Positions 21,001 to 27,000 of a stretch of 64,000 nucleotides of DNA are shown piece by piece. Position numbers: made by a program. The DNA is taken from NCBI GenBank assembly GCA_963805855.1, contig CAWDVW010000007.1:576001-640000 (forward strand), in the 5' to 3' direction. This DNA comes from Candidatus Dadabacteria bacterium (GTDB taxonomy: Bacteria; Desulfobacterota_D; UBA1144; Nemesobacterales; CSP1-2). How positions within the stretch are numbered: position 1 is the first letter of the stretch; each line of letters begins with the position of its first letter.

Positions 21001-24000
21001 TATTGATACTCTGCCGCCTGTTGCCAGCCTATTTGCACTTTTTTCGTAATAGCTACATTTGCATCGCATGTTTCGTATAAATAAATCTTCTATTCTGAGA
21101 GAGTCATTTGTAAGTTATGGATAAAACTCTTCTTTTGTTTTAAGCCCGGATTACTTCTTCTCCTGCTCCTCTCGCATATGCTCCTGAATCCCCTCCCATT
21201 CCTTTATAGAGCCCGCTGTTATGGGGCTGATAGATGTTGTGGGAATCAGAGGATAAAAATGGACCCCGCTCTTAACGTGGCAGTTAACACAACTAGCATA
21301 GAGCTTTCCGAAAGCGGCCTGAAACACATCCGATTGTTTGGAATCTATCGCTTCGATTAGCCCCGGAAAGTTCGCTGAGAGAAGTCCCTCTATTCCCGGT
21401 CTTCTCGTCGGATCGACGACTGCCGCCTTTTCCAATGTCTCTTTGATCTTCCTTGCTTGGAGGTTTGCATATTGTGTTTTCCCGGTAACCCCCGCTGCAA
21501 ACAACTCATTAAGGCGGATTCCAGTCCACAACATGAGGTCCGCATAGGACGGTTGAACAAGTCCGAGCTCATTTACCTTTTCTTCAGTTGATCCCGTAAG
21601 CCAAGCAGGCAAGGGAGGTTTATAAAAGCCCGTCTCCTTCTTGACAGCTAATCCTACTCCAACAATGAGAAAGGAGATAATGATTGAAACAAATAAGGCT
21701 TTCTTCATATGACTTATCCTCCGTGTCTGAAATTACTGTGAAACATTGTATCTGGAATCCAGTTAGAATCAAGGATTTAAACACACGATTAAGCCCTGCT
21801 GAGCTGTTCTACCATTTCAAAGCCGTTGCTGGCATATTCTTTAAAAAGTATGAATCAATTAGGCGTAACATGACAATTCTTACAGAGCTTGCTATCTTCG
21901 ACTGGAAGGCGGAGACGCACCTTTGTTTTCTGGGGTAGCCCAATCTTTCCCCCAAACTCAGGGATTACAACTTGGGCTAGAAAATCCTTCTCATGTTTTC
22001 CAAGATTTGCGTCATAGACGACCCTGCCTTCGATGATTCCCTGTGGATGGGGGTCATGACAAGAAAAACACGCAATCTTGTTGTTCTCATCCCCCGGAAG
22101 ACTACTCGATTGGGGAATCGAGTATTCCAAGTGCTCCTTTGATCCGACATGATGAGTTGGCAAATGGCACACCAGACAGACCTCTGACGGTTCAAAGTTG
22201 AGAAGGTACTTAGGCGCCTTCTCTCCCGGCTTAGGCATCTCGGAATGGCAAAAAAGGCAATTGTTTTCATCCTTAGGATTTTGCTCCATCGCCGCGTGGG
22301 GACTTTCTTGAGCTCCGGAAATCGAATACGGAAGCAAAACGAAAACTATCAATACTAATATCTTCTTGCCTCTTAATCTACCTGTCATATCCGCCTCTCA
22401 TATGGCATTTTTCACAGAAAGACTTAAGCTCGTGACAGTTCCCACATTCTCTGGGATTTGCTCTGGCTTCAATCCCATGAATAAATCTAAAATTCCTGTC
22501 GTGAACCCTCAAGGTGGGAAGATCTCTCCTCTTATGGCAATCTTCGCAGAACCTGGGGCTGTGGCAGGTGTTGCAAAAAGTCGCATCCGCCTTCGCGAAT
22601 ACTGCATGTTTTACTCTCCAGTCGAAGTTATGGTTGGCCGGCATGATATCGCGCATGTTGGTATGGCAAGTGTCACAACTACTCGGTGCGATACTGCCCG
22701 CCTGAGGATTAAAATGACAAAAATGACAGGTTTGTTTACCCGGGACGAGAGCCTCATGTGAAATTTCGGCTCTTTTCTCTTGTTCTTGTTCCTTCGCTTC
22801 TATTACAAAACCCACCGGATGACATACTTGACAGTTAAATCCCTCTTGGCTCAGAACCTTCTGATGCACTTTGTGAGAAAACTTCTGCTGGGGTGTGACC
22901 GGCTTGTTCTTTTGCCACCCCCACTCGATGTCACGCTCCTGCTTGCGGCATCCGTAAAATGCAACGAGAACCAAAAGTGTAATCAAGAAAAGTTTCTTCT
23001 TCATTTTGTCACCGAGAAATTATAGCTGAGTCCCAAGTCAACTCTCGCGTCCTGATTGAAATCAGGATTCGTATTTAATTCAACATCAGCCCTTAATACC
23101 AGGTTTTTAATAAGAAGGTATTCAAAGCCCATTATGTAGCTAAATGCGTTACCCTTCTGATTGGTTATCTTTTTGTAATTGGCATAGGCAAAGGCGAATT
23201 GTAAATCCAATCCGTTGTAGATCTGTTCGTTTAAATTAAAATTGAGACCAAACGCATGGTCCTTGTCCCCTGCATCGATATAATAAAAACCATTAAACGC
23301 CGTGAGACCGATATCGCGCCAGAAGTCCCACGAAAATCCAAGCCGTGCGATATTCCCGTTTCTGTCTATATCATCAAGAATATGGTAGTTAGAATAGGCG
23401 TAACTGGCTTTAACCGTGAGGAAATTGGCAGGTATTAAGGTCACACCCACCTTGGCCTGATTAAGGCGTCCAACCGAAAAGATGTCATAAATCGGATCAA
23501 GCTGGAATTTTTCCCGCTCCTCATCAAGATTGTAGTTATCGTATTCGAGATTGACGTATAGGGATTTAGTCACTGTGATTCCCAATCCGGCTGTCCCCAA
23601 GCCTAGATTTCCCTGGCCTACATCAATTTCGGCCAGGCCGTAAAATTCTGCGAAATCGGTAAAAGGTATAGCCCTGTTGAGGGAGATATTTACAAAGTTT
23701 CTTGAGGAAAAATCCTGCGGATTATAAAATTGATAGCCGACTGAGAATAAAGCGCCCAGGATCTTACTGGACTTCAATTTAATTCCTGCTGCAGCAAAGC
23801 TTCTGAAAGGTCTCTCGGGCTCAGGCTGGAGATCTTTATCCTGGTACCCGCCGTACGCTACAAGTTCGATTCCGTCCACCGGCTTAAACCTTACCAAACC
23901 GCCGTCGAGAAGAAAAAAGGTGACGCTTTCTGTTATGATCTGCCTGCCTAAACGAACCTCAAACGTATTTGATTTATTAGAATATTGTAAAAATGCGTTA

Positions 24001-27000
24001 TAAACATCGAAAGACTCGTCCTCGCCACTGAATATATCCCTGTATCTCATAAAGGTGTTAAAAGAGAGGCCGCTTGATGGGCTTGAGGCATTCAATTCCA
24101 GATACTGATAAAACGGATAGAGATTCTTTCTGCTTCTATCCGGCGGAGTACGAATCGGACTGGGCGCCTGAAATAGAGAAAGGGTGTTCCCGAAGAAACC
24201 TAAGCTTCTCGGACGGACCATCTCTTCCTGGCCGTACCCAGACCTTTCCCCCAACAAGATGATTAGAATTATGAATGATGCGGGTAGAAATGCTCTTTTC
24301 ACTCATCAACTCCGTTATCACCATGACATATAGGACAAGCAGCAAGCCCTTCTTCGTCAACCAGTGCCTGAATATCCTCTAACGGAAGTAGACCCCCGGT
24401 GCGGTCGACCTGATGAATGTCAAATTCCGGGTGGCATGCGAAGCAATCCGAACGACCCCATCCGTCCGGGTGCTCTTCTATTGTAAGAATTAACCCTTCA
24501 GGGCTGTCAAGAATATTGCCAAAGCCTTGACCCTGGTTTTCTTCGCCTACGCAACCTATGATCAATAAAATCAATAAAATCGCCAGTAGGCTCTTCATAT
24601 GATTACCTCGCTAAATCATTGAGGACGATTGATACGTTGATCCGGCGGGAGAAAAGGCAGATGTACCACTTCCACACCCAGAGGCTCACCAACGCCGTGG
24701 CAGTTTATACACGCGCTCTCAGGCTGAGGTCCTCCCAGATGGTTTTCTCCCGTAAGTGCGTCCCCAGCTGCATTGACTCCAAGATTGTCATGACATGCCG
24801 TGCATGTCGAAATAATCGGCGTGGTCGTAAAATTTGTCCAGCTTTCCAGTGTATCGTCAGTCTTTGTAAAGTCGCGTACGATGGTGTCCAGTATGTCAGG
24901 TCCTAAAATACCACGACCGGGGTCTAAAAGATTGGTGGTAGGCAGATGGCATACCTCACAGTCGGCCGTATTGCCCGGGTATAGGAGATCGCTAAAGTTC
25001 TGGGGGTTCCCGCCGAATCCGTAGATAATATAGGGTTTTACCGTCAGGTTCTCCCCTGTATGGATCTTATGGATCATGACCCTGAAATTAATCGAAGCCG
25101 TAGGCATCGCTGCGTCGGCGGGCCTTGTGTCTATGTCGTCGTTAGAGGGGTTATGGCAGAGGACACAATATTCGGTATTATTCCTGAGATTCCCGTGGAT
25201 GCTGAAGTCCTTGGAAAAAGTCCCATGGCAGGCATTACAGAACTGATCCTCCGTGGTATTATCAACTACAATCCGCCTCGGCACGGCGACTGGGTCGGTT
25301 ACAGGAAAATAGAAAACCACATTTTGCCCCGCCTCCTCCACTTCCTCCTGCAGGATAAGATTATTGCCCCCAACGGTTCTTGGAATCCTGCCTTCGATAC
25401 CCACGGCATACGTGCCCGTGCCATTCGGCGGTATCATTCCCTTAAACGTATAAGTAAAGTTTCCCGAAGCATCGGGACCCACCGAGTCTTGCGCCTGTCT
25501 TTCTCGCAAAACATTATCCTCTCCCGGCACGGGTGGTACATTGCCATGATAGTCCTGAATATTATAGTCTGTTGTAGGGCCGGATATCACCAGGCTCGAT
25601 GGAATTCATATCTTTCGGGTCAATAACGTCTCCGGCGTCCGTTTTAATGCTGTAAGTCACAACGGCATGCTCCCCCGGGCCCACCGTAGTCGACCCGGTC
25701 TCAGCACTCCGTACATCCACAATCTCGAAGTTCACCCCCGGGAGGGTGTCTGCCCTGAGCGGGATTGTATGAGCACCTGTCACAGAACGATCAAACTGTG
25801 TTCCAGAATCAGGAATGTGGCAGCCGGAACAATTTCCGTCGTTAAGCTGCACACCGCCGCCGTGGTTTTCTCCGGTGTCAAAGTTGACATCATCATGACA
25901 GGACCCGCAGGCCACCCTGGACGGATCTTCCTTATAGTCATCACTCTGAGTCGCTTGAGATGTATGACATTTTGTGCAGTTCCTTATGTCCTGAGGGAAC
26001 TCGACGTTAGAGTAATCGTGTCCTCCAACCACGTACGGGATTCCAGCCTCAACACTAGGGAGCATCGCCCCCCTGTGAATCTTATGCACCATGACCTTAA
26101 AATCGACGGTGTTGCCAGCGTCGTCAGTCGTCTGAGGGGTATGACATAGCACACAGAGCCTCACATCCCTCCTGAAACCACCGTGTAATGCTAGGGGATC
26201 ATGACAAACATTACAGGCGTCGGTACTCACTACATCCCTGACAACTGTCACCGTAGCTCCCGATGGCACAAAGTCAAACGCGCTGTTCGCAACAAACCTC
26301 CTAGCAACGTTATCAACGGTAGCCTGCCTGTCTGCATAAATACCCACAGTATGAGTTACATCCATCTCATAGCCTTCGGGCAGGACAGTATGAAAGGAAT
26401 ACTCATAAACACCATCACCTAGGGGTTCCAGGGTTCCCTCGTTTGAGTCTTCGGCGGCAGCTTGGCCGTCCTCGTTGGTTATGTAGTCGGTGTATTGGCT
26501 GTCACCCTTTCCAATGAATGCAATAATAAGGCGTATCCTCACGCCTTCAGTGGTCAGAGGGTTCCCCATATCGTCTGTAAGCTTAATGGTCACAATCGGT
26601 CTTCTATCAGGCGGTATCGTGGCATCAAGAATGTCGACTATTAGACCGCTGCCGGTAGCAAGCGGTGGGGGATTTACGCCCCCTCCTCCCCCGTCATCGC
26701 ATCCCACAAGTGTTAAGGAAAATCCCGATAAAATGATAAGTAAGAGATTAAAAAGGGTGTACTTTTTCACGGCTCTCATCCTCTCTTTTCAGTAGATATT
26801 TATATTATAAACTTTTATTCTAGTCAAGAGGCAATTTTAGTGCCAGGATATTGAAGTTTCTCTATTCTTGCAGTCTCGCAAGAATGGTGCCAATAGTAGA
26901 ACCTTTCGTTATCCCCTGTAATCGGATGGATAACCAAACCCTCTGCCGGAGTGCTGTCATTGCGAGCGTTAGCGAAGCAATCTGCAACCCAACTACTGTA

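Follow-up and report, generated by a model that had tools for sequence, protein, structure and literature searches.

A Pcc-family porin and heptaheme cytochrome encoded in a conserved operon with an OmcA/MtrC-family decaheme lipoprotein in Dadabacteria

Background

Which porin and which cytochrome could relay electrons through the outer membrane to a decaheme lipoprotein of the OmcA/MtrC family that is encoded apart from mtrA and mtrB? The question is raised by a locus of Candidatus Dadabacteria contained in the window analysed here, a stretch of 64,000 nucleotides, in which an mtrC-type gene is followed by genes for a diheme lipoprotein, a porin, a heptaheme and a tetraheme cytochrome. The Mtr and Pcc (porin-cytochrome) systems are usually presented as unrelated, parallel solutions to extracellular electron transfer. 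A preliminary description of the locus had regarded its porin as a new, orphan one and its heptaheme cytochrome as unrelated to known cytochromes.

Results and discussion

Organization of the operon

The features of the locus, in window positions, are the following:

21151..21708, minus strand: monoheme cytochrome, accessory, 185 aa
21855..22388, minus strand: tetraheme cytochrome, predicted periplasmic carrier, 177 aa, 4 CxxCH, signal peptide, lipobox Cys absent
22378..23004, minus strand: heptaheme cytochrome, putative lipoprotein, predicted barrel insert, 208 aa, 7 CxxCH
23001..24302, minus strand: Pcc-family outer-membrane porin, OmbB/ExtB/ExtE homologue, 433 aa, 22 strands, 0 CxxCH
24299..24598, minus strand: diheme lipoprotein, candidate adaptor, 99 aa, 2 CxxCH
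about 24616..25597, minus strand: mtrC C-half, 324 aa, 5 CxxCH, PF22113
25562..26779, minus strand: mtrC N-half, OmcA/MtrC-family decaheme lipoprotein, 405 aa, 5 CxxCH, lipobox Cys27, PF22113, TIGR03507
26831..26845, minus strand: sigma-54 promoter-like site, 10/10 consensus positions, 66 nt 5' of mtrC
26878..26892, upstream of mtrC: second perfect sigma-54 promoter-like site

Lipobox cysteines, read from the sequence by eye, mark MtrC and the diheme protein as predicted outer-membrane lipoproteins; in the latter the lipobox cysteine (Cys16), the two CxxCH motifs and two additional histidines are invariant. A conserved lipobox-like cysteine is also present in the heptaheme protein. Both promoter-like sites were scored against the sigma-54 consensus. 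Among the 22 related loci scanned, a site 5' of mtrC was found in just one (L001, same genus), conservation outside the genus not being found; in this genus the operon is probably under the control of a sigma-54 promoter. RNA run X20 gave contigs over portions of mtrC, the junction between the tetraheme and heptaheme genes, and the monoheme gene, and none over the porin; because the word share is small and contigs alone are available, this coverage speaks neither for nor against transcription.

Conservation of the five-gene set

Conservation of the operon turned out to be stronger than had been claimed, since 23 of the 29 close loci have all five genes in the same order. The diheme and tetraheme genes are each found in 26 of these 29 (the tetraheme gene is missing from L023), and the 185-aa monoheme gene in just four. 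In the phylum, 23 of 120 genomes are MtrC-positive, and all 23 are among the 25 that are porin-positive. The same five genes recur, in shuffled order, with a second clade of porins that is 20-27% identical: the set is complete in 18 of that clade's 51 loci, which are mostly short, and the diheme gene is present in 31. In four of these loci (L115, L117, L118 and L151), 3.7-7 kb 5' of the porin hold no mtrC, and in L158 mtrC lies on the opposite strand. The MtrC proteins of the second clade form a clade of their own, so that the MtrC clades mirror both porin clades. Carriers of the set are uncultured sediment and soil bacteria. 'Polyangiaceae' had been listed as a further lineage; however, the genome concerned, UTPRO1, shares its GTDB class with the Binatia genome and does not represent a third lineage.

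Relationship of the porin and the heptaheme cytochrome to the Pcc family

The porin has 107 close homologues, none with a Pfam family, and searches of Pfam and NCBIfam gave nothing above cut-off for the porin itself, with weak matches in two of 56 distant relatives; its search against PDB sequences was blank, and an Atlas search returned unnamed clusters only. The count of 22 strands was reproduced by DSSP on a model with pLDDT 87.1, with which Foldseek retrieved, as described before, generic porins, and VIA retrieved wide 22-strand TonB-receptor barrels (Z up to 20; MtrB, Z 16.4). These blanks, together with a quick-method tree in which the close relatives form a clade apart from the OmbB and ExtB/ExtE clades (and in which the sister relation of the two five-gene clades is left unsettled), are what could be said for a new family without kinship to known conduits. 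The 'orphan' label arose, however, because known Pcc porins match no Pfam or NCBIfam family either: in the same libraries, the porins at the OmbB, ExtB and ExtE positions of genome G384 were blank in Pfam, and those at the OmbB and ExtB positions also in NCBIfam, so the blank searches are no sign of novelty. An OmbB-like Geobacter porin was likewise blank against the PDB copy, in which no OmaB-like sequence was found either.

Profile searches, on the other hand, link the porin to Pcc porins. A profile of the 75 close porins alone matched the OmbB-position porin of G384 with E 1.1e-15, the ExtB-position one with 7.3e-11 and the ExtE-position one with 1.5e-5, and in the whole genome it matched Pcc porins only; with a wide porin profile the values were 2.7e-62, 3.9e-45 and 2.4e-57, respectively. 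Matches to the Geobacter Pcc porins run full length, and reversed-sequence controls gave no score. Pairwise identity to OmbB is just 22% over 345 residues, and a comparison with one Geobacter porin by hhalign reached a probability of 84.5. At the level of sequence the porin is a homologue of the Geobacter Pcc family, and, with the adjoining heptaheme cytochrome also homologous to Pcc cytochromes and the pair already in print as Pcc-like (FeGenie supplement), a new family is highly improbable. Weak matches of the wide profile in two further genomes (G002 and G009) were rejected as unrelated barrels with transporter-like neighbours and without hemes.

The heptaheme profile matched OmaB (E 6.3e-20), ExtF (3.3e-8) and ExtC (2.5e-7), and gave no match to OmcB, OmcC, ExtA, ExtD or ExtG, so that the supposed lack of relatives does not hold for this protein either. 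Five CxxCH motifs are invariant across the heptaheme protein, OmaB, ExtC and ExtF (alignment A4), and the protein can be described as the five-heme core of OmaB/ExtC/ExtF (residues 110-201) with two N-terminal hemes. In 39 of 40 distant loci the porin has a homologue of this core next to it.

A predicted complex of porin and heptaheme protein scored 0.66, the best of three controls being 0.00; of solved pairs, 116 of 157 reach the mark applied, and of mismatched pairs 2 of 215. The value of 0.81 given for the complex before was not reproduced, the inputs having differed. Contacts agree between runs to at least 68%, the partner has a pLDDT of at least 55, and the modelled interface comprises heptaheme residues 118-199. 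As had been suggested, the heptaheme protein probably fills the barrel. Such a pass may reflect an overall resemblance to the MtrAB complex, whose structure is solved. The single-sequence fold of the heptaheme protein had a pLDDT of 49 and was left out of the analysis.

The decaheme lipoprotein and its frameshift

The N-half of mtrC scores 258.7 bits on TIGR03507 (cut-off 209.3), in agreement with the preliminary description, and the four intact orthologues scored reach 421-457 bits. Two pentaheme PF22113 domains and ten CxxCH motifs complete the traits of the OmcA/MtrC family, and an intact orthologue matches OmcA (4lmh, E 1e-30) and MtrF (3pmq, E 8e-29) in the PDB. The split of the gene, already noticed and here giving halves of 405 and 324 aa, is due to an additional base near 25597 in comparison with L001, which puts the C-half out of frame; of 29 related loci, 22 have mtrC as one frame with ten hemes. 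No contig spanning 25597 and no indel there was found among the contigs and indels listed, and an exact-pattern metagenome scan for the site gave 0 matches.

It could be that the operon is decaying in this strain and that full MtrC is no longer made, as the split itself suggests; a nearby monoheme gene is frameshifted too, at 20459, where the form of the window seems to be shared by contigs from runs X1 and X20. We hold this to be rather unlikely, since both halves align with the intact L001 protein at 78-89% identity and retain all ten heme motifs, and about seven of 147 orthologues are frameshifted in G000 (against a same-genus genome), a scatter over three contigs that fits residual assembly errors.

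Proposed function and alternative readings

On sequence grounds, the porin and the heptaheme protein are Pcc homologues, the decaheme belongs to the MtrC family, and the five genes occur as a set. The reading that we favour with reasonable confidence is a Pcc-family conduit of the OmbB-OmaB type, with an OmcA/MtrC decaheme replacing OmcB as the surface cytochrome. Genes nearby encode proteins with 45% identity to G384 proteins that are presumably ImcH and CbcL, as had been described. Electrons would pass from these quinol oxidases to the periplasmic tetraheme protein, from it to the heptaheme protein and so across the outer membrane, then, possibly via the diheme lipoprotein, to MtrC, and finally to Fe(III) or Mn(IV) oxides, humics or flavins. 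The model puts the five-heme core inside the 22-strand barrel; strand topology would place its C-terminal hemes near the outer mouth, and the two extra hemes and the putative lipid anchor toward the periplasm. Contact of MtrC and the diheme protein with the barrel is a candidate feature suggested by synteny, and the function, by family precedent, is likely outward electron transfer to extracellular acceptors.

The place of MtrC in this scheme could be a looser one. The conduit might consist of porin, heptaheme and diheme proteins, with MtrC co-transcribed and loosely associated, like OmcA of Shewanella, and reached by electrons through diffusion in the membrane. Diheme, heptaheme and tetraheme modules do adjoin Pcc porins without MtrC in L052 and L087, the placement of mtrC shifts in the second clade (L158, L162), and Pcc surface cytochromes are frequently replaced (PMC6148476). 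We nevertheless think this arrangement unlikely, though well short of negligible, given that the porin co-occurs in 23/23 MtrC-positive genomes, that MtrC clades parallel the two porin clades, and that L063 has its MtrC gene at the omcB position itself. A stronger coupling can also be entertained, with somewhat more hope and still tentatively: a stable five-subunit, 23-heme chimera in which MtrC would dock on the Pcc barrel via a diheme adaptor replacing the C-terminal hemes of OmaB, old enough to persist in two porin clades only about 25% identical, and giving sediment Dadabacteria and Binatia their main route of extracellular respiration.

Porin-cytochrome wires are reversible, and an inward flow could supply a Rieske/cytochrome b complex or the quinone pool with electrons taken from Fe(II), reduced humics or other cells. 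A cluster of Rieske, cytochrome b and pentaheme genes lies in the island that holds the operon, and also within a few kb 3' of the operon in six related loci (L004, L007, L009, L015, L022 and L023). Against this direction, which we consider improbable, are the ImcH-like and CbcL-like genes, the use of MtrC as an iron-reduction indicator in FeGenie, and the 73 iron-oxidizer genomes in which He et al. found no OmbB-OmaB-OmcB homologues.

A conserved operon joining a Pcc core to MtrC means that the Mtr and Pcc kits mix, and that about one fifth of Dadabacteria and one sixth of Binatia-class genomes are candidate mineral or humic reducers overlooked by mtrAB-based screens. Taken with the complex model, the shared core of five hemes also gives the Pcc barrel insert a testable identity, ExtC/ExtF rather than ExtA/ExtG. 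If the chimera were true, MtrC would function without MtrAB, and the OmaB/ExtC/ExtF core would be the universal Pcc barrel insert.

Comparison with known systems

The locus resembles MtrCAB and MtrDEF-OmcA of Shewanella in its TIGR03507 decaheme and in the plan of a barrel, an inserted wire and a surface decaheme. The MtrB/PioB porin (TIGR03509) was again found in none of the 120 genomes of the phylum in a recheck with a working positive control (2 of 41 genomes above cut-off in another family, that of G226). The heptaheme protein has no match to MtrA/DmsE (TIGR03508), for which the best score in the island, 47.2 bits, lies below the cut-off of 192.2, and none of the 20 multiheme ORFs listed across the genome is an MtrA-sized decaheme, in keeping with the earlier claim of a conduit without MtrA or MtrB. 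In contrast to Shewanella MtrCAB, the barrel is smaller, and the L001 MtrC lacks an extra cysteine pair, a CX14C pair being found instead in 10 of 22 intact orthologues. In the available portions of Shaw et al. 2025 (PMC12133095), Desulfobacterota are reported to carry MtrC-family genes, sometimes apart from mtrAB; mtrAB is present there, Mtr and Pcc are handled as parallel pathways, and those portions mention no Pcc operon with MtrC and neither Dadabacteria nor Binatia.

With the Pcc systems of Geobacter sulfurreducens (OmbB-OmaB-OmcB, ExtABCD, ExtEFG) the locus has in common a homologous porin, which is about 400-440 aa long and has 22 strands, a homologous multiheme protein encoded by the next gene, and a lipoprotein surface cytochrome within the cluster. 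Pcc porins have 18-22 strands and an adjacent cytochrome of 5-14 hemes (Shi et al. 2014, PMC4245776), and most Pcc clusters also encode an outer-membrane lipoprotein cytochrome; here too, porin homology and strand number in that range go together with an adjacent OmaB homologue and a clustered predicted lipoprotein cytochrome. The five-gene operon has no inner-membrane protein gene like those of PCC3 and PCC4, as described in the accessible part of He et al. 2017. From the Pcc conduits the locus differs in that the surface cytochrome is of the OmcA/MtrC family instead of OmcB, ExtD or ExtG, in the added conserved diheme lipoprotein and tetraheme cytochrome, in the separate porin clade, and in a barrel cytochrome with two extra N-terminal hemes, whereas OmaB has three extra C-terminal ones. 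In its lipobox-like cysteine the heptaheme protein resembles ExtC and ExtF, lipoproteins according to the literature; OmaB is soluble and periplasmic.

The porin-heptaheme pair of the orthologous Dadabacteria locus L003 is Pcc-like in the FeGenie 2020 supplement, with matches to a Thermovibrio cytochrome (E 7e-44) and a Desulfurobacterium porin (E 5e-19), whose conduits form Pcc group III (Shi et al. 2014, PMC4245776). Since porin and heptaheme are already Pcc by our profiles and by FeGenie, novelty narrows to the Pcc-MtrC combination and the two small cytochromes, and the surprise is moderate because swaps of surface cytochromes in Pcc clusters are known to be frequent (PMC6148476) and the core pair had been flagged in Dadabacteria. 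The pore itself is not new, and the pairing of Pcc with MtrC appears to be undescribed; the part that looks undescribed is that a Pcc core is joined in a fixed set with an OmcA/MtrC decaheme, a diheme lipoprotein and a tetraheme cytochrome.

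Five-gene operon and the mtrC reading frame

The operon runs on the minus strand in the order mtrC, diheme, heme-free barrel gene, heptaheme and tetraheme; among the last four genes, neighbours overlap by 4-11 bases.

Genes of the operon (window positions)
25562-26779, minus strand, mtrC N-half, five CxxCH motifs
24616-25590, minus strand, mtrC C-half, five CxxCH motifs
24299-24598, minus strand, 99-aa diheme protein (ORF and heme motifs)
23001-24302, minus strand, 433-aa heme-free protein, the porin (ORF)
22378-23004, minus strand, 208-aa heptaheme protein (ORF and heme motifs)
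21855-22388, minus strand, 177-aa tetraheme protein (ORF and heme motifs)

The assignment of the mtrC N-half to the OmcA/MtrC family was reproduced (258.7 bits with the decaheme model TIGR03507, cut-off 209.3), and the pentaheme domain PF22113 is recognised in each half. In the same-genus locus L001 mtrC is a single frame of 738 aa; relative to it, the window carries one extra base near 25597. None of the contigs listed bridges this position, and a metagenome pattern scan at the frameshift gave 0 matches. Scoring of 147 orthologues against genome G006 flagged 8 as frameshifted; with one repeat removed, about 7 remain, mtrC among them, a number compatible with assembly noise. It is also possible that the frameshift reflects true decay rather than assembly error, because the frameshift of a neighbouring monoheme gene seems to be present in the window's form in contigs of sequencing runs X1 and X20. 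That gene, a monoheme cytochrome c at 20437-20784, has one extra base near 20459 and encodes 143 aa in L001. The conclusion at the family level is independent of the mtrC frameshift.

Conservation and distribution

Conservation of the operon is borne out by the GTDB loci that have a close porin: in 23 of the 29 all five genes are present in order; five others are cut by contig ends and one (L023) is without the tetraheme gene. Among these 29 loci, 22 have mtrC as a single ten-heme frame; a contig end truncates it in 3, it is split in 1, and in the other 3 it falls outside the contig. A CX14C cysteine pair is found in domain III of 10 of the 22 intact MtrCs (L011, L016-L024) and is absent from the other 12. 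A monoheme and triheme pair lies downstream of the tetraheme gene in 17 of the 29 (among them L002, L005 and L006) and is absent in the window's genus.

The porin was detected in 25 of 120 genomes of the window's phylum, and TIGR03507 exceeded its cut-off in 23, all 23 also porin-positive, a count which, kin being non-independent, is no statistical test. The porin was also found in the class to which the Binatia genome G120 belongs, in 49 of 301 genomes sampled, or 48 of 300 when the unpublished G593, used for no other result, is left out. The UTPRO1 genome belongs to this same class, so that the Polyangiaceae named in the preliminary description are not a further lineage. Salt-marsh and marsh metagenomes contain near-identical DNA, with at least half of the sampled words in 9 of the 24 runs listed.

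Relationship of the barrel protein to known porins

The 433-aa protein was again modelled as a 22-strand barrel (pLDDT 87.1, 75-row alignment), and its 107 close homologues are indeed without a Pfam family. An exhaustive search yielded 83 distant representatives, many of them full-length at 21-29% identity. Two profiles were used: A1, of 75 close porins only, and the wider A2, which takes in 54 of the 83 and matched 44 of 251 genomes sampled from the phylum of G120. In 39 of the best 40 distant loci (G120's own left out) a homologue of the heptaheme core adjoins the porin, and the remaining one stops at a contig end. A cytochrome of one distant locus clusters with AAR36015.2 (named G. sulfurreducens PCA), which genome G384 encodes at 100%. 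In G384 the same 403-aa porin occurs twice, and after each copy come a 231-aa octaheme and a dodecaheme of 744 or 768 aa (ombB-omaB-omcB, ombC-omaC-omcC); the genome also has a porin-pentaheme-13-heme layout (extEFG) and an 11-motif cytochrome-porin-pentaheme-hexaheme layout (extABCD), all names being given by match to published layouts of Geobacter-type porin-cytochrome (Pcc) conduits.

Against the G384 porins, A1 gave E values of 1.1e-15 (OmbB position), 1.5e-5 (ExtE) and 7.3e-11 (ExtB), and A2 gave 2.7e-62, 2.4e-57 and 3.9e-45, respectively. Across the whole genome A1 matched only the OmbB, OmbC and ExtB positions; with A2 the next match beyond the four Pcc porins was partial, at 1e-6. Reversed-sequence controls did not score. 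These profile matches indicate that the barrel is a Pcc porin and not, as previously proposed, an orphan or new family. It had looked orphan because known Pcc porins are also without family matches: Pfam was blank for the three G384 porins tested and NCBIfam for two tested. Counting against the Pcc reading are the pairwise identity of 22% to OmbB (E 1.6e-6) and the well-supported clade that the close porins form by themselves, separate from those of OmbB and ExtB/ExtE (quick tree, 87 rows).

The heptaheme cytochrome as a predicted barrel insert

The heptaheme profile matches OmaB (6.3e-20), ExtF (3.3e-8) and ExtC (2.5e-7), did not match OmcB, OmcC, ExtA, ExtD or ExtG, and found nothing below E 2.6 in the rest of the window's genome. 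Residues 110-201 align to OmaB, ExtC and ExtF; five CxxCH motifs and the distal histidines are invariant in this alignment, and the heptaheme is a relative of these proteins. OmaB has three hemes behind this core, whereas the window protein has two in front.

The porin-heptaheme complex passed again, the best of 3 controls being 0.00, with a score of 0.66 instead of the 0.81 first obtained (the mark is one that 116 of 157 solved pairs and 2 of 215 mismatched ones reach; at least 68% of contacts are shared between runs, and the pLDDT of the partner is 55 or more). In the model, heptaheme residues 118-199 face alternating residues of strands around the whole circumference of the barrel. The result supports binding, although the score may reflect likeness to MtrAB. 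Residues 174-184 make their best contacts in the barrel's outer half, with strands counted from an assumed periplasmic N-terminus; the C-terminal hemes would therefore point outward and the two extra hemes and lipid anchor inward. The five-heme core modelled in the barrel is also that of ExtC, ExtF and OmaB (L088:6101-6568, L089:6206-6679, L090:3655-4350), which suggests that ExtC and ExtF may be the inserts of their own conduits. Docking of MtrC, electron direction and substrate belong to what we infer for the conduit.

A second porin clade and other loci with MtrC

Porins of a second clade, some named Binatia, are 20-27% identical to the window porin, 46 of 51 aligning over >250 residues. 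Among their 51 metagenome loci (41 distinct at 90%), 35 have mtrC, 40 the heptaheme, 31 the diheme, 25 the tetraheme and 18 the whole set of five, missing genes being mostly at contig ends; in L115, L117, L118 and L151, however, mtrC is missing although 3.7-7 kb of upstream sequence is present. The second clade thus retains the same five genes, the diheme usually following the heptaheme. A hexaheme or tetraheme gene lies downstream of the operon in many of these loci. The MtrCs of the two porin clades split into two clades of their own (FastTree, 29 rows). The homologies of porin, heptaheme and MtrC, as well as the five-gene synteny, are directly observed. In 40 other Pcc loci, MtrC exceeded the TIGR03507 cut-off in 3 (L048, L062, L063); at L063:7657-12144 a porin and a nine-heme OmaB-like protein are followed directly by MtrC in the omcB position.

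Island context and regulation

Among the proteins of the surrounding cytochrome island are an ImcH-like hexaheme of NapC/NirT type and a CbcL-like cytochrome b fusion with 11 hemes; both have a G384 counterpart at 45% identity. It also holds an NrfD/ferredoxin/octaheme set, hemA and ccm genes. An ExtKL-like pentaheme, a Rieske protein, cytochrome b and a pentaheme (7907-11470) form a bc-type set, which closely follows the operon in L007 and L009. A second decaheme lipoprotein of 828 aa (14099-16585), outside the MtrC family, is 26% identical over 617 aa to an octaheme upstream of the L050 Pcc porin.

Nine sigma-54-like sites were found in 54 kb (window 4544-32281 and C7:564467) against 2.2 expected from the genome mean. 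Most are immediately upstream of cytochrome or hemA genes, and two perfect ones lie upstream of mtrC, a position at which just 1 of 22 related loci retains the site. The stretch 16671-19673 encodes a regulator of NtrC type and a kinase.

Beside the operon, inverted repeats are nested in the intergenic stretch 26950-27570, where contigs from many other sequences add up to a very high depth; it probably consists of short mobile or repetitive elements. An IS110 transposase gene (29289-30518) stands between the genes of two paralogous lipoproteins (27790-28917, 30643-32007) that have Pro-Thr linkers and, at the C-terminus, heme domains. Further frameshifts in the assembly are seen at 48076-50972, an ABC permease over four frames with a truncated CrtC-like gene. 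The genes at 54235-60289, for LexA, two products without assignment and a paralogue of DNA polymerase III alpha, resemble an imuA-imuB-dnaE2 mutagenesis cassette.

Comparison with known systems

Porin-cytochrome operons in Dadabacteria with homology to the Geobacter ones are stated by FeGenie (PMC7005843), in whose supplement file 9 genes 4 and 5 of MFCJ01000044.1 (L003) are matched to Pcc proteins, one from Thermovibrio (E 7e-44) and one from Desulfurobacterium (E 5e-19); the mtrC is not among its 20 Dadabacteria rows. In the parts consulted, Shi 2014 (PMC4245776) gives Pcc ranges and surface cytochromes without co-evolution with the core, Jimenez Otero 2018 (PMC6148476) describes surface lipoproteins as often replaced and one cluster type with an extra decaheme lipoprotein upstream of extE, and Shaw 2025 (PMC12133095) treats Mtr and Pcc as parallel pathways. 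The three supplements of PMC11475568 did not match Dadabacteria or Binatia. In the mainly open-access literature covered, in part, which included PMC11492766, PMC11475568, PMC12545173, PMC5566968, PMC12977616, PMC8805035, PMC6295460 and bioRxiv 10.64898/2026.05.27.727921, we found no description of an MtrC-family gene fixed in a Pcc operon.

With MtrCAB the locus has in common an OmcA/MtrC-family surface cytochrome, but MtrB is absent in 120 of 120 genomes of the window's phylum: the MtrB/PioB model TIGR03509 matched 0 of them, while in the positive control, 41 genomes from a different family, it exceeded its cut-off in 2. An MtrCAB identity was rejected for the locus in spite of its surface cytochrome; judged by the sequence features tested, it is a Pcc conduit and probably works as one. 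Its new element is a conserved module of Pcc, MtrC, diheme and tetraheme across Dadabacteria and Binatia.
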